NCBI GenBank assembly: GCA_958009085.1
Contig: OY253689.1
Span: 1-64,000, forward strand
Reading direction: 5' to 3'
Origin: Protoeuglena noctilucae
Lineage: Eukaryota
DNA: 64,000 nucleotides
Under the pieces are notes generated by a model. The model was given only the letters and a program-made list of their open reading frames with translations. It ran no database searches and was not told the origin of the DNA. Below, in pieces: positions 534 to 34,300 of this stretch; position 1 is the stretch's first letter, and each line of letters begins with the position of its first letter. The position numbers and the translations under genes are program-made.

Positions 534-3500
534 TCACACGCGGTGCGCCACCCCCTGCGTGGCCAGCTTGAGGGCGTCCAGCCGACGCTTGAGGTCCTCG
601 AGGGTCGTGCCCACGACTCCCCCGCTGGCACGGACGCCCTGAGGACGGGGCGGCGGCGGCGAGAGGTGTGGATGTCGCATCCTGCGCTCGTCATAGCAGC
701 CGATGCAGCAGTGACCCGGCTGAGTGCACTCGCCTGGTTCGAGGCCGCAACGGACGGCAAGGGAGCCTTGTCCACGCTCCCTGCCCCCCACGCCTCCCGG
801 GCCTCACTGGGCGGCCCCCGGCGGTGCGCTGCGTCGGGGGACCCCGCGGCCGAGTCACCGCGGGAGGGGGCGGCTGAGGGGGCCACCGAGGACTGCGGGG
901 AGGGCATTGGGAGGAGGTCACGAATGGACCCCGTGGCCGTGACTGCGAGTCTCACTGCCTCAGAGAGCCCTGGGGGTCGCCTGCCCATGCCCAACGCCCA
1001 TCACCCCCTCCCCCTCGCCTGCGTGGACGCCACAGGGTGCGACTGGAGGGCGGCGACGGCCTCGGCGGAGGGCAGCCCCACGCTGCGTCGGAGCTGGGCG
1101 ATGCGCTCCTGCACCGAGGGGGCCGAGGGGTCCAGGGAGGAGCGGGGCGGGGGGGCGTGGGTGGGGTGCAGGGCGTGGCTGTGGTCGGGGGCGGGGATCT
1201 TGGAGGGGGTGCGCTCGAGCTTCGCAGCGGGGTCGCGAGAGGCGGGGGCGGGGTCGCGGGGGCGCGCGGCGTCCGGGGAGGTGCAGTGGGCGGGGGCGGG
1301 GGGGTCGACCTCTGCAGGGGAAAGGCGGGGGCAGGGGCAACGTCGCCTGTGTTATCAACCCGACCGTTAGTGCGGCGCGGTCGACATGGCAGGGCCTGGC
1401 AAGTCCGGCACTCGCAGGCGTGCATATCGCATGCCGCGTCTCATCAGTCACGCACCGTCTCCCCCCCTCAGGCCGTGCCGCCTCTCTGCAGCCGCTGCGA
1501 GTCCCTTGGCGACGTAGTGCCTCAGCTCCCGCGAGCACTGCGCCAGGAACGGCTCCAGGTCGATGCCCGGGTGCCGCTGCGTGAGGTCGTAGAGGTCGGC
1601 CAGGCCGGCGTGGCTGGTGGCGCGGTCGGAGATCTTGCGGAAGGCCTGGGGGGGAGGGGGGTGCGTGGGGTGAGGGTGAGTGGAGGGTATGGGAATGGAG
1701 CAGTGGGGGCTTTATGGGAGCGATGGGTGCCGTGGATGGGGTGCGTGCGAGCGGGGGAGATGGGTGCGTGTGCACGCAAGGTGAGGCAGGGCTGCGTAGT
1801 GTCACGGCCCCGTCCATGGGATAGCAGGGTAAGCAGTGAGGGTGTCGCTGCTCGGCATGCACTGCATCGCCGTCCTCGCCTGGGAGAGTGCCTTCTGCAG
1901 TGCGGGGTCGGCGCGTCCGCTGCCCTCAGGGGCGTTGGGGTCCAGGGCCGCGAGGGGGAGGGACTCGCGGGGGCCGGCACTCTCACTGCGCAGCTGACGC
2001 TCCAGGGCTGCGAAGGGGGTATGGATGGGGTGGGTCAGGTGACCTCAGAATGCAGATGCAGGTCCAATGCGCGGGTGGATGCGTGTTGCTCTGCTCTGCC
2101 CCCCCTCCCCCCCCCCCCCCCCGCCCCTCACCCCCCGCTGCCTCCGCCGACTGCAGTGCGATCTCCACGTAGGTGTGGATGACGGGGACGGCGTCGGGGC
2201 ATGCGGGGTCCGGCCGTGCGACCCTGGCCACGTGGTCACGTATGGCGCGGCCCTTGATGTTGCAGAGGGTGTGGAGGAGGGTCTTGACGATGCGCAGGGA
2301 CTCGTCGGCGGAGTTGCCGCGCCTGCGAGGGGGGTGGGGTGAGCGGGCAAGCGGTGATGGGGGTGTGGGTGGGAGTAGGGGTGGCAGTGACGCTGGGCAC
2401 AGGGTCTCGTGGCAGGCAGCATGCGAACCGAATACAGAACAGTGCATAGCAATCACATCACCCCCCCCCCCCCTCGCCTGCGTATCTCCTCCACCCCCAG
2501 GGCGTGCAGGAAGGCATGGATGGCCGCCAGCACCGCGTCCAGGTCCAGGGACCCCACCACGCGGCCCATGGCCTTGGCCAGCTTCACCAGGCAGCGCACC
2601 GCGAGCTTCACCACCTCGGCGTCGCGGCCCTGGGGAGGGGGGTGAGGAGGGTCGGCGTGGGGGGAGCGAGGAGGGAAGGGGGGAGCAGTGCGCACAGAGC
2701 TGGGGGGTTTCTGAGCTAGAGTGGCTGGCAGCGTCGCTGTGCTTGTCATCAATACTGCCAAGCAGGATCGCTGCGTCTCTCGCCAAGACCGCCCACCCGC
2801 ATCCCCGCGTCCCTCACCGGGGGCGCGTCCGTGAGCACGGGCGGCTGCAGGAGCATCCCCACGAGGCAGCACACGACGGCGGTCTTGTCCCCGTTCTCCA
2901 GCGACCGCAGCACGAGGACGTTGAGGGCGCGGAGGAGGCCGGGGGCGTCGTCGCCCAGGGATGCCACGGCGGGGGAGGGGAGGAGGTTCAGGGACACGCC
3001 CAGCAGGTCGCGCAGGGTGGGCTCTGGGGGGAAGGGGGGGATGTGAAGAGGTGAGATGAGGAAGGGAAGACTGGGCTACTATGCAATGATAAGAGAAGTA
3101 GACGCATCTGCAACCACGTGCGAGTGTGCATGTCATCGCCCATCACCTTGGACGGCCTGTGCGGTGGCGGGGAACTGGAAGAGCTGCATGAGGGCGTTGA
3201 GGGTGTACTTGCACGCGCGCACGCACGAGGCCATCCCCGCCGCGTCCCCCCGGGCGTGGGCGGCCGTGGCACCCGCGAAGGCGTCGCGCATGGTGGCGGC
3301 GAGGGTGCGGGAGAGGCGGTCGGCGTCGGGGGCGAAGAGGGAGAGCATGGAGGACCTGGGGGAGGAGAGGTGGGGGTGGAGAGAGGTGGAGCGTGGTTGC
3401 AGCAGACGAGGACTGGCCACACGGAGCTGGGCAGAGCAGGGGGAGTGCGACGGCCATCAGTGCATGGCCATGACGAGCAGTCTGCCTCACCTGACTTCCG

Positions 3501-6500
3501 CATCTGCCCCCGCCGCCTCCATGAGCAGCCCGCAGAGGATCTTCATCCCCTCGATGGCCCTGGCCGTGTCCCCCGACTGCACCATGCCCATGCCCAGGGA
3601 CCAGGGGGTCGCCTTCAGCTGCGAGGAGAGAGGATGGGTGCGTGCAGGGATCACGTGTGACGAGTGCAGCGTGGCGCATACATGCTGGAAGTGGCATGCC
3701 AAGCCGTGCAGGGATGCAGTCACTTCAGCACAGCACAGCATGTCATCATCGCCCACCTGCATGCCCTTGTCCCCCACGACGGGCGGAGTGCGCGGCGCAA
3801 CCCTCTCCCCTGCTTGCGTCGCCGTCTGCCCCGCCTCCGCGCCCCACGCCATCCGCGGCGCTGCGGGGGGCGCCTGGGCCGGGGCGGCGAAGAGGGGCGC
3901 GGCAGGGCAGTCCGGCATGGCGCGCATCTCCGCGTCCCCGTCCCTGTCCGCATGCGATTGCACGTGCCCTTGCACGTGCATGTGTGACCCCACTGCACCC
4001 ATGCCCACTGCGTGGCCGTCTGTGCCCTCGTCTCCGTCGACGTCCATGGGCTCAGGGGCAGGCGCAGCGAGGCCAGGCAGCCGCGAGGGGGCGGGCTGCG
4101 TCTGCTTGCGGGGCCGGGCGTCGGCACGAGAGGGGGGCTGCGGGGGGAAAGGAGGGGGAAGAGGGACGTGGCGGAGTGCGACATGCATGTGATAGCAATG
4201 GCTCATCTCAGTTCACCCCTCTCTCCATGCATTAACCCCCCCCCCCCCCCCCCCCCCCTCCCTCTGTCACTCACCTCCTCCCTCACCACCTTGACGTGTT
4301 TGAATTTGTCCTCCAGCACCGATGCCTCCCTCTCCCCCATGGGGCCCAGCGCCTTCCACGCCCCCACGCCCAGGTGCCGGTACGCGGTCCCGCAGCATTG
4401 CACGGCGGCGTTGCGGACGCTGTTGTCGCGCTCCCCCACCGCGCGGGCCACCAGGGGCAACACCCGCGCCCGCGCCATGCAGGGCGGCACCCCCCCCTCG
4501 CGCTCCACCCAGGCTGCCAGCTCCTCCAGCCACGTGACCCGCGTGCGCTTGTTGCCCGTGGACTCGAGGCCCAGGCGGGAGATGTACTCGAGGACGCGGT
4601 CGGGGGGGTACACCTCGCACACTGGGGGGGGGTGGTGGGGGGTGGATGAGGTTGCACGTGCGATGGCGGGGCAGTGGGGTCGGTGCTATGCCCCAGAGAT
4701 GGCAGGGGTAGGGTTGATGATATGGCTTGCATGACAGACACCCGGGCATCTCCGCGTCCCACCCCCTCACCCTGCCTGGCGACGCGCACGTGTGCCTGCC
4801 GGACGCGGTCGAGGTTGTGCCCCGCGCGGTCGACCAGGGTGGGCAGCAGGGCGAGGGCCTCCTGGTCCGAGAGGGGGAGGCGGCGGTCGCGGAGGGCGGC
4901 GAGGATGGCAGAGAGCATGTCCAGCACCTTGAGCAGAGACTGGGGGGGAGCAAGGGGGGTGGATGGTGGTGACGGGCCATGCCAGGTGCAACATCACCCA
5001 TGAATCAAAGGTGATTGTGAGAGATCCATGCCATTGCAACAGCACCCACACGCCGTGCCCTCGCCTGTGTGTTGGGCTCGCAGAGTCGGCATGCGGCCCA
5101 GTAAAGGACCAGGTCCAGGGACCCCGCCACGCAGTCGAACTGAGACAAGGCAGCAGCTGCGATGCGGTCGGCGGCCGCGCAGTGCCTGGGGAAGTCGGGG
5201 CTGAGGAGGTCGGCGACGAGGGAGGGGGAGGCGAAGGGGGCCAGGGAGGGGGCCAGGGACTCCGAGGCGGCCTCGTCCGCGCGGGGGTCGGACCAGGCGG
5301 CGGGGACGCGCACCACGCGGAGGCGGCGGGCGCGGAGGGGCTTGTTGGGGTCGACAGCGACGAAGGCGGGCTCGGGGGCAGACGCGGTGGGTGCAGAGAG
5401 GGTGGCGGCCGCGCTGGCACGCACGCCCCCGGCAGCGGCGGCGGCCAGGGCGGCGGATGCGCGGGGGAGGGCGGTGGTGGAGGCGGAGACGGAGGCGCTG
5501 CGGGAGGGGGCGCCGGCCGCGCGGTCCCTGGGGGCCCCGGTGCGGGTGCGGGTGAGGGCGGGGGCGGTAGCGGCTGTGGGGCCGGGCAGTGCCACCCCCG
5601 CCTTGGCCAGCGCCGCAGTGAGGGCGTCGGCGGCTTCCCGGTTCGCTGGGGACCGCAGCCGCGCCATGGCCTGGCCGAGGGCGTCCGGCGTCACTGCTTG
5701 CGCCACCACGCGTGTCAGGGCCGCCCCCGCCTCCCGTGCCCCGGGTCCCTTGTCAGCAACAGCAGCGGCACAGCAGAGGAGGACGTCGGCGAGGGACGCA
5801 GAACACAGGGAGGCCGCGTGCTGGGGGCACACGAAGAGGGGGAGTGTAGTGTTAGTATGGAAACACCTGCTAGAGTCGAGCGCCATGTGCTGATGAGCAT
5901 TTGCCCATCCCCCCCCCTCGCTCACCTGGGGCAGTGCGGTGGCCAGGAACTCCGCGGCCGCCTGCTTGGCCTCGCCTCCCCCCCTCGTCTGCGCCAGGGC
6001 CGCCTTGAGGTCCCCCACCACCCAGTCCAGGCCGCATGCCTCGGCTGCAGCTGTGAGGAAGGCCGACGCTGCGGCGCGGTTGGGGGCGCGCTTGTCGGCG
6101 AGGATGGGGAGGGCGGCGTCGAGGAGGGAGCGGCCCTCGCGGGCGAGGGGGCGGCCCATGGAGCGGGCCAGCTGGGCGCAGACGTCCAGGGCCTGGGACA
6201 CCAGGTTGCGGTTCGAGTCTGCGGGGGGAAGTGGGGAGAATGAAGTTTAGCGATAACACAGATGCTAAGTTGGCGCACGACTGGCAAGTCGGAAGAGGGT
6301 ATGCTGGACTCGCTGGCCTGCCGCATCAATGACAGTGGCCCCCCCCGCATGTGCAACACCCCCCTCCTCTCTCACCCGTGATGCGTGCCTTGAGTGCCGG
6401 CACCAGCTCCCCCACGTCCGGCCCCACGCGGTGCCCCGTGGCGGCGAGCATCCCCGCCACGGCAGATAGCGCCTCGGCCCGGTCGCTCCACTTCACCGAC

Positions 6501-21620: not shown

Positions 21621-22303
21621 GGCTCTCGTCGCTCCCCGAGCCGGACGAGCCGGCCAAGTTGGCCCGTGCGCAGCAACTCAGCCCCGTTGCAACCAATCCG
21701 AGGGTCGCGGGGACGCGACCGCACTCTGGTGGGTGTCACGTGTGTCGGAAAGAGCAGACTGCGAACGTCGAGGACGCCAATTCGTGAGCAAGCGAGGCTG
21801 ACGAGGATTGACGAGGACAGCAGATTAATCACCGAGCTTCCCGAGTCATTGGTTGCACACAAGATGCGAAGTAAGCGTCTGTGGATCCGCGAGATGCTTT
21901 CGGGGCCGCGTTGAGGCTGTGCAAGGGATGTCAGATGGGGTGTGCATGACTGCGAGGGACTTGCTCGCCCCTCGTCCTCCGATGCGTGCACTCTCCTCTC
22001 TGCGTCTTCCTTCAGGGGAGGCAGGCCACCGCTCGCTTTGTGGACGTCGTCTCCCTGTTCTGCTGACAAAACACGGTGTGCATGGTCCCCAGCGATTCCC
22101 TCCTCGCCGGTCGTGTCGCGCGTAGGAGCCAAGTGGAACGGGACGCGTTATAGCGTGGTGGGGATCGCTGTTCGGTAAGAGGTCCCGGTCTGGGGCCCGG
22201 TGCGCGGCATGCTCTTGCTCTCGCCCTGCCCGCCGACCGACGTGGCCACCGTTTGCGATTGCGTTTCGCGCAATCGCTCTCTTATTCTTGGTTGCAGGTC
22301 TGT

Positions 22304-24220
22304 ATGTCCCCGTGCTCGCGCGGCATGCCGCGGGCGACGTGTCTCGGGCTCTTCGCGACCTCGCTCGTCGGCGGAGCCCTCGGGGCGATTGCGCCGCAGC
22401 TCCATGCAGCGCCGATGTGCAGGTGAAGCGAGAACGATTGTGACGTACAAGACGTGGCCTCCATACCCTGTGAAACACCCGCCTCTGTCCGCGTCTGCGG
22501 CCCCAGTGATGTGACCTCTGCCTGTGGGGCCATCCCACGCCTGTCCGATGCCTCGGGTCCAACCCCCGCACACGCGCCTTCCTTGTGGGGCTGGAAGGTC
22601 GCGCTGGCGTTCGTGATTGGATTAGAGGGCTACCTGGGTGGTCTGCTCCCCACGCTCTTCCCTGCCCTGTGGACGCCGCGCGGCCGTGACGCCCTCTCCT
22701 TCCTGGCACTGGTCAGGTGACTGGCTTTCTTGCTGGCACTGGTTAGGTCTGTGCGTGAGTGGTGCTGGTCATGTCAGCAGGGCCACCACGCCACACCCAG
22801 CAGCCCTCTCCCCTTGCAGTGGTGGCATCTTCTTCGGCACAGCCATGCTCCACCTCGTCCCGGAGATGGTCGCGCTCCAATCCTCCCTCAACGGTGCGTC
22901 ACAGTACCCCCTGGGAAGCCTCATGGCCCTCGTGGGATTCTCCCTGGTCTTCGCCATCGAGCACGTCGTCTTTGGGGACGGCCACGACGACGGGGACCTG
23001 GCAGCGGCGGCCAAGCGGGGGGCGGGAGCAGTGAGCGCGGCGGACGAGGCGTCGGTGGAGCCCATCCTGGCGGGGCACGCACGAGAGGGGGGGTGGGAGC
23101 AGGCTGAGGGTGTGCGGAAGGGGGGGCTGGAGGCGGGGTCGATGGGGATTGAGCCGGGGACTGGGAAAGGGTGGGGGGAGGGGTCTGTGGGGGAGGCAGC
23201 ACATGGGCACGGGCACGGGCATGCACATCCACATGCACATACACATGGGCATGCACACGCGCATGCACATGAGCATGGCTGGGCCCGTGAGCACGTGCAT
23301 GGGGGTGACTCTTGGGGCGTGGATGGGGCAGGAGTGGCGCGTCGACAGAGCAGCGGGGACGCGGGGCCTGCGACGGGGACGTGGGGCGGGGGCTCCGTGC
23401 TTGGCGGGCCCCTCTCCGGCGCCCCCCGTCTGCGGCAGGTGCTGGTGCGCCGCCGCAATGCTGTGGTGCTGCTGGCGGCCCTGGTGGTGCACTCGGCGCT
23501 GGAGGGCGTGGCCCTGGGGGTGACGCAGTCGACCAGGGACCTGTGGGGCATTGCTGTGGCCATCCTGTCTCACAAGGCGAGGGGCGACGGGCAGGGGGAG
23601 AGGGACGGGGCTAACTAGCAAGCGGTGCCTTACACTGCAGGCCCCTGCCTTCCCTGCAGTTAGTATCGGACTCACTGGCGGTTGGTATCCGCTTCATCGC
23701 CCACGGTGCATCCAGGGCAGAGGTCGCGCTGTGGCTCATCCCCGTGGCACTCTCCAGGTCAGCGATGCAGCCAGTCACTGCTCTGCTTGCACCTCTCAAT
23801 GCCTTCCCAGCATCACCCTTCAGACCTTCCCCAACTGCTTGGCTGCGCCTCTGCACCCCACCCACCGCTCTCATCCCCCATCGCAGTCCCCTGGGCATCG
23901 CCGTGGGCATGGCCGCGTCGGGCGTCTCCGATGCCGCCTCCATGCTCCTCATGGGCGCCTCGGCGGGCACCTACCTCTACGTGGGGGCATTCGAGGTCCT
24001 GGCCCACGAGATGAGCCACCTCCCGCACCCCACGTGCCAGGAGTCGGTGTCGCAGACGGTCGTCGCCGTGGACGCCGCTGCGGGGGGGGCCGCTCCCTGC
24101 CCCGGGGGTCCCGTGGTGGGGCGGGGGCACGGGTCCAGCCGGCGGGCCAAGGCGCGCATGCTGTTGGCGTTTGTCCTGGGGTGGGGCGCCATGGCGGCCC
24201 TGTCCGTGTTTTCCGAATGA
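22304..24220 (+). CDS. ZIP family zinc/iron transporter with His-rich loop; 5 exons
   Basis: SGGIFFGTAMLHLVPE, HGHGHGHAHPHAHTHGH loop, LVVHSALEGVALG, AILSHK, SPLGIAVG and SAGTYLYVG. Signal-peptide-like first exon (start inferred). Confidence 0.9.
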
Positions 24221-24353
24221 TCGATGCGTCGAACACTGCATATCTCGCTGACATCTTTCAATCTCCAAGCATGCTTCAAGGAGCATGGCATCGACGGCAG
24301 CTCCGCGACGGATGTCAGGCTGTCGCGACCCATGCAGCGCATTGGCACCCGCG

Positions 24354-27300
24354 TCACCCGTTGCCCCCCTCCGCCTGCGCCTGCCTGTCCCTCTCCATGG
24401 CAGCTGCCACCGCCTCCCTCAGCTGCCCCAGCAGTGCGGCGGGGGCTGACCGCGTGTCCAGGTGCAGACTGTCAGGGGACAGCCACTGCAGATGACAGCG
24501 AACATGAGGGTGCTGTGCCTTGCCAGGGAGCGTGACAGCTTACATGGAGAGGCGCCACTGGCTCGCCTGGCATATACACATGTGAGACGGGAAACGTATC
24601 ACCCCATCCACAATCCACACCACCCCCTCCCCCCTCACCCCCTCGACCGTCTCCCTGGCCGCCTCGTCCGCCCCCGCCAGCACCCCCGCGTCCCTGGGCA
24701 TCCGCGCCAGTCGCCAATCCGCGTCCACCCCGCTCTGCTGCAGGCCCAGCACCTCCCCCGCCCCCCGGGACTCCAGGTCCGCCTCCGCGATGAGGAAGCC
24801 ATCGTTGGTCGCCTCCATCGCCTGCAGAAGGGGCAACGACTCAAGGCATTCAGCTGACTTGCACTATCAGCTGAATGTCGTCGGCCAGCACTGCAGCACT
24901 CGCCATGCGCCATGGGTATCGGTAGAAACCACCAGTCCCACTCCAACACCCCTGTCCCCCCCCCTCACCTGCAGCCTCCGCGCCTGCTCCTCCCCCTCCG
25001 CCGCCGTCACGAGCAGGCACGCCGCCTCGCCCCCTCCCCGCCCCACGCGCCCCCTCAGCTGATGCAGGGCCGCCAGACCCAGGGCTTCTGCGTTGTAGAT
25101 GACCATGAGCGTCGCCTCAGGCACGTCCACCCCCACGTCCACCACCACGCTCGCCACCAGCACGTTGCACTCCCCGGCGCGGAACGCCTCAATTGCCGCC
25201 TCCTTCTCACGCCCGGGCATCTGGCCGTGCACCAGCGCCACCCGAGCGTGAGTACCCAGCGGCTGCCCCGGCCCCACCAGCCGGGCAAAGAGACCCTCGG
25301 CCGTGATGCGACCGGGTGCGTCCCCCGCACTCCCCGCCACGCGCGTGCACACCAGAAAGGCGCGCCCCCCCTCCTCCACCGCCCGCCGCACCTCCTTGTC
25401 CGCCGCCCCCGCCACCGCCTCCGCCAGGTCATCACTAGACGGGGTGGCTGAAACTGGCACCGGTCGCGCCATCCGCCCCGGCTGCCCCGGGCCCTTCCTG
25501 CCCCTGCCCCCCTTGGCGGGTCCCTTTGCTGCTGGCCCCACACGGACGACCCGGGTGCGTACGGGCTGCCTGCCCGGTGGCAGCTCATCCACGCAGCTGA
25601 GGGCCATGTCCCCGTGCAGCACCTGCCCCAGCGACCGGGGGATGGGCGTGGCGGACATGAGGAGCTCGTGCGGGTCGATGGGGGGGGACGCGTCCACAGG
25701 GTTAGCCACGGCACCGTCGCTGGCAGCCGCAGTTGCAGTGGAGAATGGCTCTGCGGAATCAGCCTCTTTACTATCACCACCGTCGTCATCGTGTGTGATT
25801 GCGGCTGGCACCGCCTCTCCGTTCGCGCCCACAGCGGCCCTCTCCGCCGCCCCCCGGTGGTTGGCCCGGAGCAGCGCCCTCCTCTGCTCGACTCCGAACT
25901 TGTGCTGCTCGTCGATCACCGCCAGCCCCAGCCGCGTGAAGGCCGCGTTGGCCAGGGCGTGGGTGCCCACCACGACAATGGGGTCCCCGGCCAGCAGACG
26001 CGACTCAGCGGCACGGCGGTGGCTGGCGGGGGTAGCGCCGGTGAGGAGCATGAGGGGGGGTCTGCCGTGGGGGAAGAGGCGGCGGAGGCGGGGGGAGCCG
26101 CGGGTGGCGATGGCGTCGCAGAGGGAAGACAGGTGCTGAGAGCAAGGGGGTGAGAGTTACAGGGTGAGAGTGGGGCGCATTGCATGGCAGCAAGGTGCTG
26201 AGGGCGAGGGGGTGAGGCGCATTCCACGGGTGAGAAGTGTTTTTGATAGGTGGGGGTGGTGATGTGCTACTATTTGCAACATGAGCATCCCTTCATCTCA
26301 CCCTGGCGTGCTGCTCTGCGACGATCTCCGTGGGCGCCATGAGGGCCGCCTGGTGCCCCGACGCCGCCACGGCCAGCAGTGCCACGAACGCCACGGCTGT
26401 CTTGCCACTCCCCACGTCCCCGTGCACCAGTCGCCGCATCCAGGGCACCCCGGGGGGGGAGGCCATGTCCAGCAGCACCTCAGATATGACGCGGCGCTGG
26501 GGACAGGCGAGACAGGGGATGCATGAGAGTGACATTCATGCGGGGTGCCAGTGAGCGAGATGGACTCCGCTTGACCAGTGCCATCCATGCGTCACCTTCA
26601 TCGCCAGTGATAAGGCACTGGCAGTCCACCCCTCTCGCCTGTGCATTGGTGGCTTGGAAGGGCAGGCATGCGATGGCGTCGTCCATGGCCTCGAGGACGT
26701 GAGGCGGCACCACCAGCTTCGCCTTGGGGTGCAGGCGGCCCTGGAGCAGCGACCAGGCGCGGCGGAGGTGGAGCTGGACCTGGGGGCAGGGAGAGATGAG
26801 GGGGTGAGGTGCATGGCAGCAGGAGAGAGGGTCAGTGCATGGCAGGAGCTGAGAGGGTGAGGTGCATGACAGACTCTCCGTCACATTGCACATACCCCCC
26901 CGACCCCCCATCCCTCGCCTGGGTGAGGAACATCTCCTGGAGCTTGAGCCTCTCCAGCCCCGCCTCCACCCCCCCCTCGTCCCACGGCTGGTGCACCCCC
27001 CGCCACGCCTCCAGCAGCCCCGGCAGCCCCGCTGCCTCCCGCACCCGCGCCGGCAGTGGGTCCGGCACAAAGGCCAGGTCATCCTCAGCACTGTGCTCCT
27101 CTTGCGTCATGCCCTGCCTGGCCGCCGCGTAGTCCAGCGCCGTGCTCACCGCGTGCCGCACCTGCCCCGGCGCCGCGTCCCTCTTGGACGCATACACGGG
27201 CATCAGCACCCGCCCCTCCATGCCGTGCGTCTGCCGCTCCATCCACGGCTCCCAGAGGTCGTCCAGGCGGTCCAGGGGCTTCACGGCGGGCTCTTTCAGC

Positions 27301-30300
27301 AGGAACTGGGGTGGGGATGGAAGGGGAATCTATGAGTGAATTTATGAATGAAGAGAGAGAGGCGCTTGCACGGGCACGAACGTGAGAGAGTCACACTCCA
27401 TCACTGCGTCATGCACGTGATGCACTGCACTGTCTTCAGTCCCTGTGTATCTATGCCCCCCCCACCCCCTTGCCTCGTGTGGGATCTCCACGGTCATCTC
27501 CTTGTCGAAGGGACTGATCTCCGATCCACGGTACGGCAGCGGGTGGTCGATCTTCCCCTCCAGCGACACCAGGGCACCCTCGGGAAAGAGCTTAGCCACG
27601 CCCCTGCGTACGAGAGTCGGGGTGTTGGGGTGTTGTTATGCGATCGGTGAGGGTGATATGGACGAGGCGAGAGTGTAGTGAGATATCATGAACAAAGACG
27701 GCACTGCAAGGATAGCCGCATGCGCCGCGCCTGTGTCCCTCGCCTGGCGATGAACATGCCCTTGTGCACCGGGCATGTGCGCATGGTGAGGCACTTGACG
27801 GTGGCCCTCTTGGCGCGGCCCATGTCCCCCGGCACCTCCACTGTAACGTAGGTGCTGATGGCCGCCAGGGGGAGCGCACTGCCCCGGTGGATGGCCTGCA
27901 CCGAGTGCCCCGTGACCGAGCCGAAGAGCAGGCACGGCTCCCCCACGCGGGGGGTCAGGCACAAGAAGCGGTGCTCCTTGGGGAGCAGCCACAGGAGGTC
28001 GCGGAGTCTGGGGACGCCAGCCTCCGACAACGTCTGGGGGTGCAAGGGGATAAGGGGTTGATGTGAGAGACTTACGTATGCATGTGCCCGAGTGTGGCTT
28101 CTGCTTCAGCATGGGTGCGTCCATGGAAGCATGCAGAGCAAGTCTCAGCACACATAGTAAGCAACATGCATGGTTCGATCCGCATTCAGCGTTACATACC
28201 CCACCACCCCCTCGCCTTGGCCAGCCCCATGTCGATGGTCGGCACCTCCCCCACTGGGGCATCGTCCCACCGCGACAGGCGGCCCACGCGGCCCTCCACC
28301 TCCGCAGTGCCCAGCTCCCCCATCACCCACTCGCTCGCATCCATCTCCAAGTACCGACGCGTGGCATCGGGTTCCGAACCCCACTCCGACCAAGGGCCCT
28401 TCCCTGCCCCCGCCTCCGCCTCTGCCATCGCCAGTCGCGCCCCCCGCGCCGCCAGCGCACCCGGGGCCTCCGTCGTTGACACTGCTGCAGTTGTGACAGT
28501 TGCTTTGGCTTCCTCAGACCCGTCTCTTGGGTGATGACCTGACCCCTCCCTCGCTGTCTCCTTCTCCCTCTCCCCCACTGCCCCCTGCCCCGCCCTCCTC
28601 CCCCACAGCCCCGACGCCGCCGACCCCCCCTCCACCCTCCCCCAGATCGACTCCTCCACCGTCACCCTCCTCCGGCTCTCCCCCTCCACCCCCCTCGCCT
28701 CCGCCGCCTCCACCGCCCCCGGCAGCTCCTCCTTCGGCTGCGGCCGGTCCACCAGGTGGGCCAGGAGGGCCGCGGCCGTGGGGATGGGCACGCGGGCGTC
28801 CGAGGAGAGGCGGTAGCGGACGCGGTCGTCGTTCAGGAGGTGGGGGAGGGCCAGGCCGCACAGCCAGGCCACGTCGTCACCGGCGCGGTGGGACTGGGCG
28901 CCGGCCGTGGGCAGGTGGAAGTAGGACGCGAGGTGCTTGAGGCTGTGGCGGACGAGGGGGCGGCCCCCGTTGGCGGCCTCGATGGCCGGGGTGGCCACGC
29001 GGAAGGCGTGGAGGGTGTCCAGGACGTCGTAGCGGACGGGGTCGGTGGGGGAGGGGCGGTCGAAGCGGGGGGGGAGCAGCACGTTATGACGGCGCATCTG
29101 AGAGGGGCGGAGAGAGAAGCGAGATTGAGCAGCCCTTTGCTGGCCGTGCGCAGCTGGGGGCGTGTGGTGCATGCAGCCTTACCTCACCTGGTGTGCCGTG
29201 CCAGTGTATGCTGCCTCACCTCGTGGGCCATGACGACGTTGTCGTATCGCCTGGCGTTGTGGGCGGCCAGCACCAGGTCAGTGCCCTCGGGGACGTGCTC
29301 CTCCACGAATGCCCAGAAGCGGAGGAGGGCATCGCGGGGGGAGGGGGCGCCGCGGACGTCGGCGTCGGTGATGCCATGCACACCTGAGACAGAGGGGCAG
29401 GGGGGGAGATGCGAGAGGGCGGCGATAGAGACGTGAGTGCCAACACGCGACCCTGCATTCGAGTACACTGTGTCACAGTTGTCTTTATGACATGCACACC
29501 CCCTCATGCCTCACTTGTGGCGTCTGCGGGGATGGGCTCCCCTGGGTTGACCAGGGAGTGGAAGGTGGCCCCCGGCACCTCCTCCCACCGCAGCGACGAT
29601 GCCCCCAGCGCCACCACGCGCGCCGCCACCTCCACGATCCTCGCCCGCGCCGTGCTGACCCCGGTCGTCTCCAGGTCGTACACCACCACGCGCGCGCGCT
29701 GGCCGAACTCCGCGTTGCGCTGGGCCTGGAGGCGCAGGCGCTCCTCCTCCGCCTCCTGGCTCAGAGCAGAGACGCGGGAGGGGGGAGAGGCGGTGCGGGC
29801 GGCAGGGGCGTGTGCGTGGGGGTCGGGGTGTGAAACACGCGAGGCAGGGAGCGGCTGCCGTGCACGCTGGGATGGGGATGGGGAGGGCGTTTTCTCGACT
29901 CTTGCCGAATCGACTCTTGCCGAATCCAGCTTAACCGACGCCATCGCCTCCGTGACCCCCTCTGCCACGTCCGCACCCCCCTGCGACGGCGACCACCGCT
30001 GCCCCTGGCTCTCCCACACCGCACGCTCCCCCCTCCACTCCCTGCCCCACGTGGATCCCCCAGCATGCCCCGTCGCCACCTCCCCCCGCCCCTCCGCCTC
30101 CTCCACCCTCGCCAGGTGGGTGCGGATGGCACCCAGGGCGTCCGCGCGTGCAGTGGCGTCCATGCCGGGGTAGCGGCGGGCGAGGCGCAGGAGGGTGGAG
30201 AGGGCGGCGGTGCGGGAGGGCGTGGCGTGGCCGGGGTCCCGGGCGTGCATCTCGTGGAGCATGAAGGTGAGGATGTCGGAGAAGGGCGTGTCGCCCGCCG

Positions 30301-30746
30301 CGTCATTCTGCGCCAGGGAAGAGATGGCAAGGGGTGGGGAGGGACAGGGCGGGGCAGCGAGCGGGGAGTGTGACCGGGTGGGGAGTGTGACCTGAAACGC
30401 GTGACACGTAGCCGAGAGGACGGGTGGGCTGCGCTCACCGTGAGTCCGGTGGAAGCCTCGAAGTCCAGGCACTGCCGGAGCAGAGCGCGGCTGTCGCGAG
30501 GGGAGTACGGGGGCAGGTCCTGCGCGAGCGAAGCAATCCATTAGCGCGGAGGACACGTGGCTTGGTTGAACAGCAGCGTGGCCAGCACGGGCGCGTCACC
30601 TGAGAATCGCCGCCCTCGAGCTGGCCCGCGCGCGGAGGCTGCGCGCCAGCTTGCCCGGAAGACGATGTCGCCACGTCCCGAAGCTCATAGTACAGCAGCC
30701 AGCGGTGACCCGCGCAGAGTCCCCGCGAGCGCAGCAGGCGCAGCAT
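24354..30746 (-). CDS. recG: Organellar RecG helicase with an internal DEDDh (DnaQ-like) 3'-5' exonuclease domain; 13 exons
   Basis: RecG motifs [56 protein letters not shown] and [25 protein letters not shown]. Exonuclease motifs [15 protein letters not shown] and HRAGDD. Transit-peptide-like first exon [10 protein letters not shown]. Confidence 0.88.
29896..29925 (+). repeat. Perfect 15-bp tandem duplication in a RecG linker exon (DSARV x2)
   Basis: cgactcttgccgaat occurs twice. Confidence 0.9.
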
Positions 30747-31366
30747 CGTGGGCCGGGGCGGCGGGCCGCCGTCCCACGCGCGGTCCCCCGGGCGGTGGGT
30801 GCGGAGGAGGTCACTGCGCATGCGTGCATGCAGATCAGATCGCAGGCGACGGGGTGCAGCGAGTGGGACGTCTCGAAACGTCTCAGCACGCTCGAGGAAG
30901 GGGCGATTCGAGAAGCACGCAGCCGCGATGGCTAAACCAGTCAGCCTCAGTCCTAAGGGATCGGTTTGATGTGGGCATCAAATGTTCGGCTGCTCAGAAA
31001 CGCACGCAGGGTCCTCACCAGGCCTTCCACCTGAACATCTGACCGTCCCCCGGCCTGCCCGCCCCCGCAGTGCCTCCTTCAATCGATGTACATTTCACGA
31101 CAACAGGGATAGGCGCACGCTGGTGAGAACCCAGGCAATAACGGTGGCTTGTTTGGGCTCGTGCCACTGGCACGGGATCCCGCATTGTCTCCCAGGGATA
31201 TCGCGTGCAAAGTTGGCTCGGTGTGACACAATCATTGCATGGCATCGCTTCCCGGGGCGGCAGGCGCGCGGCAGTCGCTGCCCCAGCGCGTTGCGATCGC
31301 ACACCCGTTGCGCGAGCCGACACATTCACAGTTTGGGGCGCGCGTGCGCTGGGCGATGTGAATACC

Positions 31367-34300
31367 ATGTCGTTATCGGAGCTGCAGACTCTCCAGCAGC
31401 AAGCGGCGAGCCTAAAGGCATCTGCGACGGATGTTGTGGACGAGAGGTGTGCGAGCGTGGCGCGAACGACGCGGACCCCCGGCCAATCACCACCGGTCGC
31501 TTTGGAAGCTGCGGATGCAGTGGGCACAGCCTGTCCCACGCCTCCCGCACGCTTAAACCACTGCACGCTTCCCCCGCGCTGTGCACGCAGGAAATGCGCC
31601 GCGTACCTGGAGCGGAGGGCGGGATTCCTCGCCGCGTACAAGCGCTATTTCCTCAAGGGTGACCATCGGCCCATCGCCGTCTCTCGCGACAGCGGTCTCG
31701 GGCCACCAGACCGTCGAGCCTGCCCCACAAATCTATCGATCCGTCCCCTCTCATCGCAGAGAGCCGATCCCCTGCGTCCCTCGACTCCCTTGTCGAGGAC
31801 CTGGAGGAAAGCCTATGGTCGCCGGCCTTCCACACCCCAGTCTCGGCGCTGCGCTCTGCGGTCGTGGCATCCAGGCAGTCGCCCACCGCCCAGGCGCACT
31901 TCGCCTTCGTCTGTCGCGAGGCGGCCGCATTCCTCAGCCGGGCGGACACCTTCTTCAAGCAGCTCATCCGCGACATCCAGGCGAGCGACGCGCTGTGCTG
32001 CACGTAAGACACGGGGCCGTCCGTGCGTCGCCCAGCGCCGAGACCCTTCCCAGCTCCTGCGCCCAGAGCGAGCTGGGGACGCTGGCGGTGGAGATTTCCG
32101 GGGTGCAGACGGTGTCGCTGGCTGGTGCGGCTCCTCCCACCGATGCGACCATAGAGACGGTGTGCCACGTTGTGGCCCGCATGCTCGTCTACCTGGGAGA
32201 CCTGCAGAGGTACCTGGCCGAGATGACCGAGGCACTGCAGGCCGCGAAGGCGAGGAGGCGCGGCGCTGCCAGCTCTGCGGTGCATAGGTGTCAAAAAATC
32301 CTGCTCAGCGCTTGGCCCGTCGCCTTGTGCAGGTGCCCGACGTCCCCCGGCGCTTCGTGTGCCTGGGGCAGGCGTGGCTGCACTACCAGGCGGCCGCGTC
32401 GCTGCACCCGCGCGACGGCCGCGCTAGCATGCAGGCCGCGGCGCTCCTGTCGCGGCAGCTGGGCCCGGACCGCCACGCCCTGGCCCTCTGGTACGGGGTG
32501 CGGGCCGTGGGCGCCGTCGCCTGGCGCGGCCAGGAGACGGCCATCCGCAACCTCTCCATCCTCGTCGTCGACGTCGTCCGCGCCAACCCGGCCGTGCGCC
32601 ACGTGGCCGAGGACGTGGCGTCCGTCTTGCCCCTCGACACCGCCAGCCTCATGCGGCCCGCCGCCTCCGCCTCCGTCGCCACCGACGCCGCGCACCGCCC
32701 GGGCGCCGCGCCGACTGACGCGGGCCACGCCCCCGCGGCCCAGGCTCCCCGGGCTCCCCCGCTGAGCCCCGTGGACCCCCTGGGCCTCGGGAGCGCGGCC
32801 ACCATCAACGCGCCGCCCCCCGCCATGGGCTTGGTCGACCTCCGCGAGTCGCACGCGGCGCTCGACGCGGCCTGGTGCGGCTTCACCGCGGCCCTCTGGT
32901 CCCGCCTCCCGCCCTCCCTGGCCTGGGCCCTGTGCCACGCCGCCCTGCGCGAGTCCGCCGCTGCGCTCCAGCTGCCGGACGACAAGCTCCCCGCCCTCAC
33001 CGGCGTCCTGGCGCGGTCGAGCGAAGGCGCAGGGAACACCGCCGAGAGGGGGCCGCCGGACGTGGCCCCCACCGCGTTCGACCTGGGGCGCGGGCTGGTC
33101 CCGCACGCGATGCTCGCGGTGTTCGCGCACTGGGACGCCAGCGGGGGCTTCGCTGCGGCTGTCGCCCCCCGGCCCCTCAACAGAGGGGCCGCGTCCTCAG
33201 GGGCGTCGGGGTCAGCCCGGGCGGAGGCCCTCTTTGCGGCGCGGGCGGGGCGCTGGGTAACCGGGGACACCGCGGCCCTCCGCGCCGTGGCCGCCTGCGC
33301 GGTGCTGCACCTGGCGGCACAGGCGTGCGGGGCCGTCTTCGACCGCGGACGCCCCCCCCGGCCCAGCGGGTCCCCCCTGGCGCCCGCCCTCCACGCGCTC
33401 CTCCGCTACATCGCCCTCCGCGCTGACGACCTTCTCCCGTCCTCCCTGGCCCCCGCGCCCGGTGCCAGCGGCGGCAGTGCACCCTGGTGGGTGGTGTGTG
33501 ATGAGGCGGCGGTGCGGTACCTGGTGGAGGCCTGGGGTGCGCTGGCGGGGGCGCTGTTCCGGGCCCTGTCTCTGCGGGGCATGGTGGCGTCGATGGGGTC
33601 GCTGGCGGCCATTCTCGGGGACGGGGACGCGGGGGTGGGGGTGGGGTGGGCGGGCACCCCGGAGGGGGTGGCCCTGCAGCACTTTGGGCCGCTGCGCCGT
33701 GGGCCGCTGTCGGCGGCGGCGGTGGAGGTGCTGGTGCGGCAGCGGGGCGCCGGGAGCGAGAGCCGCGCCGTGCGCCAGCGCCGCGTGTCGTCCATCCTGG
33801 CCATGGCTGCCCGCGTGGGGCAGGCTCTGGCGGGGTTCCTGCGACGCGTCGGGTGAGACACTTGAGGTGCTGCAGGGTCTGCCACATCCACGGCTGACCT
33901 GTTCACACCTCGACCACTCCGCCCCCTCCTCTTCTGCAGGGACGCCCCATTCGTGAACGACACCGACAGCACCCCAGCTGGCTTAGGCGCCCGCCTCCGC
34001 GTGTCCCTGTCGAGCCTCTGGGCCCGCGCCGCCACCCTGGCGCGCGCCGCGCAGACCGTGGCGGGCGTCGAGTGCCGACTGGGCGAGGACCCCTTCGCGA
34101 GTGAGGAGGGCGGGACGGGGGAGGGGCAGTCGGGGGACGGGGCAGGGGAGCAGGAGGGCGAGGACCCCGCGCCTCCGCCTCCCCCGCCGGTGGTGGTGGC
34201 AGAGGGGTTGCTGAGGGGGCAGTCGCAGCCTGCCCCCGCCAGCAACGGCCCGGCCTCTGGCGCTCCACCGCCCCCCTTCCCGGGGGCGCTCTTCAGCTGG

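Follow-up and report, generated by a model that had tools for sequence, protein, structure and literature searches.

Does the minus strand of Protoeuglena noctilucae contig OY253689.1 (assembly GCA_958009085.1) encode a RecG helicase with a complete exonuclease built into it, and is such an enzyme new? In this study, positions 1 to 64,000 of that contig, hereafter called the window, were investigated. The region represents a eukaryotic, intron-bearing nuclear gene in a GC-rich window (62-76% GC per 2 kb), and we consider it very probably a chlorophyte nuclear gene of the green-algal DPD1-like exonuclease-RecG family, in which a RecG of cyanobacterial derivation harbors an inserted, complete DEDDh exonuclease. 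An initial annotation had suggested that this could be an undescribed architecture for organelle DNA maintenance; that suggestion falls, because the architecture is common and already described in algal RecG. The window copy adds a very diverged example, backed by transcripts, to an architecture that is in print and widespread in green algae. What is added here is that the nuclease is an internal insertion and that all fused RecG cores form one clade.

Domain architecture of the predicted protein

The gene model was built on the sequence, RNA joints, translation and homologue alignment, and comprises the following features, with positions in the window.

24354-30746, minus strand: whole gene, 13 exons, coding sequence of 4692 nt, 1563 aa plus stop, a single open reading frame (ORF)
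30746-30600, 30519-30439, 30307-29515, 29383-29220 and 29097-28216, minus strand: exons 1-5
28033-27744, 27603-27474, 27305-26919 and 26779-26639, minus strand: exons 6-9
26496-26302, 26135-24969, 24821-24639 and 24485-24354, minus strand: exons 10-13
30600-30746, minus strand: exon 1, Arg-rich presequence-like N-terminus (aa 1-49), recognized by eye from sequence
30098-30519, minus strand: RecG N-terminal helical module of cyanobacterial type (aa ~58-146), from alignment to algal homologues and profiles
29702-30097, minus strand: linker 1, low-complexity (aa ~147-278), open frame, GC content at codon positions 1/2/3 (GC1/2/3) of 0.73/0.64/0.78
28828-29701, minus strand: predicted DEDDh (RNase_T, DPD1-like) 3'-5' exonuclease (aa 279-485), exons 3-5, from Pfam and a family profile
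29660-29680, minus strand: ExoI YDLETTG (D287, E289), conserved in 10/10 aligned sequences
29241-29264, minus strand: ExoII AHNARRYD (D388), with H, N and D invariant in 23/23 fused proteins
28873-28890, minus strand: ExoIII HRAGDD (H465, D470), with H and D invariant in 23/23 fused proteins
28216-28827, minus strand: linker 2 (aa 486-689), the remainder of exon 5, ending in GLAK, open frame, with records 3 and 4 of RNA run X1 at its ends
26991-28269, minus strand: diverged RecG wedge region (aa 672-934), exons 5-8, with GC-AG introns 5-7, from the fusion-family profile
24645-26993, minus strand: RecG SF2 helicase core and C-terminal domain (aa ~934-1518), from Pfam, profiles and NCBIfam
26421-26398, minus strand: Walker A GDVGSGKT (aa 1031)
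25913-25902, minus strand: DEQH (aa 1145)

The peptides and motifs quoted in the initial annotation all lie on the minus strand where it had placed them, and its single reading frame is borne out by the uninterrupted 4692-nt ORF across 13 exons. The candidate start, the ATG at 30746, follows an upstream in-frame ATG near 30821 with no other ATG between them in the frame of exon 1. From the N-terminus, the order is a presequence-like segment, the RecG N-terminal module, the DEDDh exonuclease, the diverged wedge and the RecG helicase core. Nine full-length fused homologues are colinear with the locus along 29692-24606 (tblastn against 22001-33000), matching the nuclease part at 29692-29202 and the helicase part at 27308-24606. 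The nuclease is an insertion between the RecG N-terminal module and the wedge, and the relatives carry it at the same site.

With reference to the exonuclease, all five catalytic residues (D287, E289, D388, H465 and D470) are retained, fall on the family's invariant columns and are conserved in 10/10 aligned sequences, and the VHGIT motif is located at the start of exon 4. As originally read, the N-terminal module is separated from the wedge and helicase by a complete nuclease; once spliced, this domain reaches 79.9 bits (E 2.9e-24) with a profile built on homologous algal domains. Taken exon by exon, Pfam RNase_T matched the minus-strand ORF pieces 29504-30595 (E 3.7e-5, profile positions 1-54) and 29184-29510 (E 9.4e-4, profile positions 36-104), with exon-piece scores of 24.8 bits (cut-off 24) and 20.2 bits; Pfam gave no family match in four other raw ORF pieces, and the relatives cover RNase_T positions 1-164 of 164. 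It might be supposed that the nuclease is catalytically dead and serves as a structural or DNA-binding module, but nothing was found in favour of this and it is very unlikely, as the window protein has all five DEDDh residues and, over deep divergence, the ExoII and ExoIII residues do not vary among the fused proteins, while the ExoI D and E are nearly invariant in the 23. The catalytic residues of both enzymes, nuclease and helicase, are intact.

By sequence, the nearest solved structures of the nuclease are a PolC-type exonuclease (1.4e-20) and TREX2/TREX1 (~1e-17 to 1e-15), with E. coli epsilon (4e-13) and DinG (2e-10) scoring behind them. MutS-fused exonucleases and stand-alone ones of land plants match the nuclease profile at E 1e-31 to 1e-44 (whole-library E), and bacterial epsilon-like proteins reached ~1e-19 at best in a separate, word-filtered search. 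One matched protein, P0243 (316 aa, 2.6e-33), belongs to the Atlas cluster 'Exonuclease DPD1, chloroplastic/mitochondrial' with a score of 0.98.

The RecG N-terminal module and the wedge, on either side of the nuclease, were recognized largely through the fusion family. The cyanobacterial character of the N-terminal module, suggested in the initial annotation, finds agreement in the profiles: among 110 non-algal RecG proteins, the algal N-terminus profile matches residues ~3-117 in 38, namely those of cyanobacterial type, at E<1e-4 with 7.6e-11 as the best value, and the cyanobacterial N-terminal profile matches 10 of the 16 algal fusion proteins at E<=1.9e-4. The window model itself matches the fusion-family N-terminal profile, from which the window was left out, at E 1.1e-12. 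The wedge region, which runs from a helix-hairpin-like segment to the helix preceding the motor, matches the fusion-family wedge profile at E 2.3e-15 (profile positions 9-245 of 245), and the relative P0175 matches the cyanobacterial wedge profile at 4.8e-9 (positions 24-239 of 240).

The motor is more readily identified. Pfam DEAD was found in 26293-26535 (2.1e-7) and Helicase_C in 24867-26156 (1.9e-18), and the SF2 helicase motifs SATPIPR (aa 1231) and QLRGRVGRG (aa 1429) are present. The cyanobacterial helicase profile gave E 1.9e-112 and was matched to position 457 of 487 (aa 1367-1518), which takes in C-terminal domain 3 (TRG region); PF19833 is present in 6/6 algal relatives. RecG is the best NCBIfam family and Mfd the second, and the DinG/XPD-type Helicase_C_2 (PF13307) is absent from the window pieces and the relatives in Pfam. 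Long low-complexity inserts were also observed in the part of the RecG motor encoded by exon 11 (24969-26135, minus strand), where the helicase profile breaks at aa 1160-1224 and 1268-1367; part of this exon, 25528-26135, is kept in an RNA contig (X1 record 2).

Relatives of the fused protein and published precedents

With the helicase piece as query, PF00929 was detected in 9 of the best 120 long RecG matches, including three Trebouxia proteins and Q68BL2 of Nannochloris bacillaris, named 'DNA helicase RecG', and fused proteins were found overall in Trebouxia, Nannochloris, Auxenochlorella, Pedinophyceae and many marine records. Word-filtered searches with the nuclease alignment returned 53 and 35 matches, missed the Trebouxia fusions and gave no MutS fusion; because known fusions were missed, an exhaustive nuclease-profile search was needed, and it yielded 41,304 proteins at E<=0.001, of which 64 reached E<=1e-30. 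Pfam, run on 73 of the 148 new representatives, revealed 12 RecG fusions, 5 MutS fusions and many stand-alone proteins (~290-360 aa), the other 75 being classed by local profiles only. The matches bear such source names as a liverwort MutS protein, an angiosperm protein, a trebouxiophyte stand-alone protein and a Chlamydiota exonuclease, and several JGI records among them are named 'ATP-dependent DNA helicase RecG'. One match deserves separate mention: P0208 (508 aa, from a Chlamydiota bacterium metagenome-assembled genome) contains two RNase_T stretches, scores better against the nuclease profile (E 8.6e-46) than the land-plant DPD1-size proteins, and could be relevant to how the DPD1 lineage arose.

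The architecture has also been printed. In the parts bearing on it of 'Expansion of the MutS gene family in plants' (Plant Cell 2024;37(7):koae277; PMC12292046, preprint PMC11275761), a DPD1-like exonuclease fused to RecG is reported in Micromonas, Ostreococcus, Volvox and Cymbomonas, with Cymbomonas carrying both fusions, RecG and MutS1. That text gives the fusion two sentences, which mention neither insertion topology nor transcripts nor function. An earlier report of recG in Ostreococcus tauri and Nannochloris bacillaris (Zegeye et al. 2012, PMC3542137) says nothing, in the passages concerned, about a nuclease.

Compared with this green-algal fusion family, the window protein shares the domain order, the insertion site, the DEDDh and helicase motifs and a single helicase clade, and it differs as the most diverged copy seen here: its 1563 aa include long linkers and inserts of low complexity, and its wedge signal is weak. 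Land-plant RECG/RECG1 of Physcomitrium and Arabidopsis, known here by description, is likewise a nuclear-encoded RecG of bacterial type; it is described in plastids and mitochondria, where it serves organelle genome stability (PMC7076466), and the Arabidopsis RecG domain scheme, as given in a figure legend, has no nuclease (PMC3542137, Fig. 1 legend). With DPD1 (Arabidopsis AT5G26940) and DPD1-MutS1, the window protein shares a DEDDh, TREX-like 3'-5' exonuclease, but DPD1 stands alone or N-terminal to MutS1, whereas the window nuclease lies inside RecG. Bacterial fusions of DEDDh nucleases with helicases (DinG, e.g. PDB 8zef, UvrD-like and Lhr-like), as well as PolC, belong to the same nuclease superfamily, which in the fusions is joined to a DNA motor. 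Their helicases, however, are of other families (DinG/XPD, UvrD, Lhr), and they match the nuclease profile at E 1e-9 to 1e-16 (DinG ~1e-9) compared with 1e-40 to 1e-69 for the RecG fusions; no bacterial RecG with a nuclease was noticed among the matches listed from the nuclease-profile search.

A quick helicase-core tree of 48 rows, built without land-plant RECG, unites all 26 fused RecG cores in a single clade (SH-aLRT 99), next to which stands a cyanobacterial clade (100). The window core is joined first by the fragment P0001 (99), next by Pedinophyceae sp. YPF-701 (82) and after that by P0097 (94), so that its nearest named relative is a pedinophyte. The nuclease tree (106 rows) has an unresolved backbone in which long branches meet. 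Many of its 'stand-alone' rows within RecG groups are probably fragments, which makes the number of label changes uninformative. One group in this tree (SH-aLRT 93) brings together land-plant DPD1-size proteins and MutS-fused domains, and the window nuclease sits with P0097 and P0303 without strong support. The choice between a DPD1 and a bacterial DnaQ origin, which the initial annotation had left to separate trees, resolves towards a DPD1-like nuclease rather than a bacterial epsilon as judged from profile scores, with the trees leaving DPD1 orthology undecided. Constraining the RecG-fused nucleases to a single clade was not rejected (p-AU 0.639) and even gave a tree 7.99 lnL units better than the free search, so that a single ancestral insertion would be the simplest reading, though not a proven one. 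As a separate observation, P0303 (1066 aa, an ENA record) carries the nuclease domain most similar to that of the window at residues 376-554, mid-protein and with no RecG part, and may constitute a third architecture with a DPD1-like nuclease.

Transcripts, splice sites and the neighbouring gene

Transcript evidence was drawn from three metatranscriptome runs of one study (X1-X3), with a DNA run (X5) beside them, all mapped to 24000-31200 and all in the form of Logan assembled contigs, not reads. Nine of the 12 introns are joined in RNA contigs of X1 and/or X3 (positions after a shift to canonical ends), and the DNA run, which is unspliced, has none of the nine joints. The introns are as follows.

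30520-30599, minus strand: intron 1, GT-AG, joined in an X1 RNA contig
30308-30438, minus strand: intron 2, GT-AG, predicted, splitting the N-terminal module
29384-29514, minus strand: intron 3, GT-AG, the ExoI-ExoII joint, X1 and X3 RNA
29098-29219, minus strand: intron 4, GT-AG, the ExoII-ExoIII joint, X1 and X3 RNA
28034-28215, minus strand: intron 5, GC-AG (AAG/GCGAGG...CAG), the linker-wedge joint 28033/28216, X1 only, with a short side of 44 nt
27604-27743, minus strand: intron 6, GC-AG, RNA joint
27306-27473, minus strand: intron 7, GC-AG, RNA joint
26780-26918, minus strand: intron 8, GC-AG, joined in X1 and X3
26497-26638, minus strand: intron 9, GC-AG, joined in X1 and X3
26136-26301, minus strand: intron 10, GT-AG, joined in X1 and X3
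24822-24968, minus strand: intron 11, GT-AG, predicted
24486-24638, minus strand: intron 12, GT-AG, predicted

The intron 2 junction (STGLT/NDAAG) rests on its GT..AG signals and on the homologue alignment, and is absent from the RNA joints printed; a 17-letter loose end of an X3 contig at 24486 is identical to the end of exon 12 and so fits intron 12. The nuclease and RecG lie in one ORF, and RNA joints flank exon 5 on both sides: X1 record 4 (791 nt) links all three exons of the nuclease and reaches 28728, covering 29097-28728 of exon 5, and X1 record 3 (753 nt) joins the end of that exon (28259-28216) to exons 6-8. Because the joint 28033/28216 occurs in X1 RNA, the GLAK/TLSEAGV junction is confirmed, with a GC donor; GLAK ends exon 5 at 28216 and exon 6 opens at 28033, in keeping with the in-frame passage from linker to wedge first read there. 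Further upstream, RNA contigs of X3 (29776-29946) and X1 (29512-29771) are continuous within the linker 1 region.

A GT-donor alternative for exon 6 (SLQ/GVAK) and other GT options were dropped, as the RNA shows GC donors. Alternative splicing at 25060, 28696-28726 and 29700-29830, where loose ends and long skips occur, was considered too; we read these as unrelated contigs because their short sides measure 20-23 nt, some are found in the DNA run as well, and the sequence is of GGAGG-type low complexity.

Several observations weigh against the identification given at the outset. The RNA runs all come from one study and consist of assembled contigs instead of reads, and positions 28260-28727 inside exon 5 are crossed by none of the X1 and X3 contigs listed, so that a single transcript from end to end is unproven; of the transcript from 29700 to 28000 that the initial annotation called for, the joints on both sides of exon 5 stand and the bridge between them does not. 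Run X2 partly covers this gap, but because it holds unspliced pieces (e.g. 25624-26278, into intron 10), its contigs over the linker do not count as evidence for a mature transcript. Matched directly, the window is weak against both the cyanobacterial N-terminal profile (E 0.02) and the cyanobacterial wedge profile (E 0.011). Pfam RecG_wedge (PF17191) was unmatched in the window pieces and in 6/6 algal relatives, with a cyanobacterial control matched. The full-length relatives P0097, P0100 and P0175 score 485-577 bits, below the NCBIfam RecG equivalog cut-off of 718, with exon 11 of the window alone at 246.9 bits. In the nuclease tree, the window domain lies nearest to a protein that is not a RecG, P0303 (41-43% identity), and outside the DPD1/MutS clade. 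As for the wedge, since the family profiles match where Pfam RecG_wedge does not, we take it to be present by transitive homology and strongly diverged.

The gap in exon 5 also invites the thought that a DPD1-like exonuclease and a RecG are two adjacent genes, transcribed separately and only seemingly fused. This is extremely unlikely, as splicing connects the final 44 nt of exon 5 with the wedge exon and the first 370 nt of exon 5 with the nuclease exons, and the frame stays open across the gap with a coding-like composition (GC1/2/3 0.72/0.63/0.81), compared with 0.62-0.80/0.37-0.59/0.78-0.95 in the other exons and a flat 0.55-0.69 in the introns. Moreover, a separate RecG gene would be without its N-terminal module, because that module lies upstream of the nuclease, and the same order recurs in many independent proteins, among them P0079, whose 1459 aa are encoded on a 5357-nt contig hardly longer than the ORF.

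Apart from the architecture, the splice sites of this gene are unusual. In well-studied eukaryotes about 1% of introns are GC-AG. Here, five consecutive GC-AG introns (26497-28215, minus strand), that is 5/12 of the gene, were observed, all RNA-joined, with the donors in the extended consensus AAG/GCGAGG, CAG/GCGAGG, GAG/GCAAGG, CAG/GCGAGG and CAG/GCGAGA. The GC-donor-like octamer AGGCGAGG occurs 17 times in the window against 6.08 expected, a number reached by 0/100 shuffles, and is nearly as frequent as the GT octamer AGGTGAGG (19 against 3.47 expected). Sites of AGGCGAGG include 23577 (plus strand), 39050 (minus strand), 50926 (plus strand) and 1018-5975 (minus strand), and the mean GC drop across its sites is 0.07, compared with 0.034 for the GT octamer and ~0 for control octamers. 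These are hints that GC-AG introns are common in the genome, the RNA check covering the RecG gene only. The literature search on GC-AG introns returned an abstract giving about 1% for human introns and nothing specific on GC-AG-rich green algae.

Adjacent to the RecG gene, a ZIP zinc-transporter gene split into two or more ORF pieces (Pfam Zip E 5e-20 and 7.3e-10) was found at 22626-24220 (plus strand), convergent with the RecG 3' end. In its first piece the Zip match stops 12 residues before the end of the ORF, and an AAG/GCGAGG site lies there (23575-23582).

Proposed role of the tethered nuclease

RecG remodels branched DNA, and in E. coli RecG and separate 3' single-stranded DNA (ssDNA) exonucleases both guard against PriA-driven re-replication. 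In a passage of PMC3542137, E. coli RecG is stated to turn essential when the 3' ssDNA exonucleases are missing. The activities are functionally linked there, although they reside in separate proteins, and the parallel concerns mechanism, not homology of the nucleases. We propose, as a tentative reading that is the likeliest of those considered, plausible without being probable, that the fused enzyme is imported into organelles (plastids and/or mitochondria) and that the nuclease tethered to RecG trims 3' ends at branched DNA. After import, the wedge and motor would bind and remodel branched DNA such as reversed forks, D-loops, R-loops and 3' flaps, and the nuclease would degrade the 3' end which that remodelling exposes. 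Degradation of the 3' end would make the rejection of a short-homology invasion, or the removal of a 3' flap, irreversible, and one polypeptide would then carry both kinds of activity that E. coli divides between RecG and its 3' exonucleases. The coupling of 3'-end trimming to branch remodelling, suggested in the initial annotation, is a reasonable inference.

The nuclease might instead have kept a DPD1 role in bulk degradation (salvage, copy-number control or uniparental inheritance), with the RecG motor feeding it branched organelle DNA. We regard this as unlikely. Its profile is DPD1-like, and angiosperm DPD1 is said, in the part of koae277 concerned, to degrade plastid and mitochondrial DNA and to be expected to need partner proteins; on the other hand, the moss and Arabidopsis RecG homologues, located in both organelles, are described in PMC7076466 as genome-stability factors, and the fusion is conserved clade-wide with an intact wedge-region and motor architecture. 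Present data do not discriminate between trimming and bulk degradation.

Improbable to a like degree is a role as MutS1 substitute, in which the nuclease of algae that lost DPD1-MutS1 would have been transferred to RecG, there to process invading 3' ends that are mismatched or homeologous (heteroduplex rejection, excision), its action being linked to mismatches and not to flaps. The authors of koae277 do speculate, for DPD1-MutS1, that DPD1 works on invading strands at their ends, but the presence of both fusions in Cymbomonas speaks against a simple replacement. The same profile retrieves the MutS-fused and the RecG-fused nucleases, which fits the substitute role. Against it, RecG has to our knowledge no mismatch sensor.

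Returning to trimming at remodelled branches, a bolder and somewhat doubtful extension would place the nuclease inside RecG junction-binding domain 1, gained once in chlorophytes, as part of an 'unwind-and-erase' enzyme that passes the released 3' end from wedge to nuclease. One such polypeptide would replace the bacterial redundancy of RecG and 3' exonuclease and, in algae that lost MutS1, the DPD1-MutS1 protein as well.

The control of short-repeat recombination in plastid and mitochondrial genomes is only partly understood. A RecG with its own 3'-5' exonuclease, as predicted here, would be a natural experiment in which branch remodelling is coupled to end degradation, and because the nuclease is an internal insertion common to the whole clade, fewer mechanistic hypotheses are worth testing.

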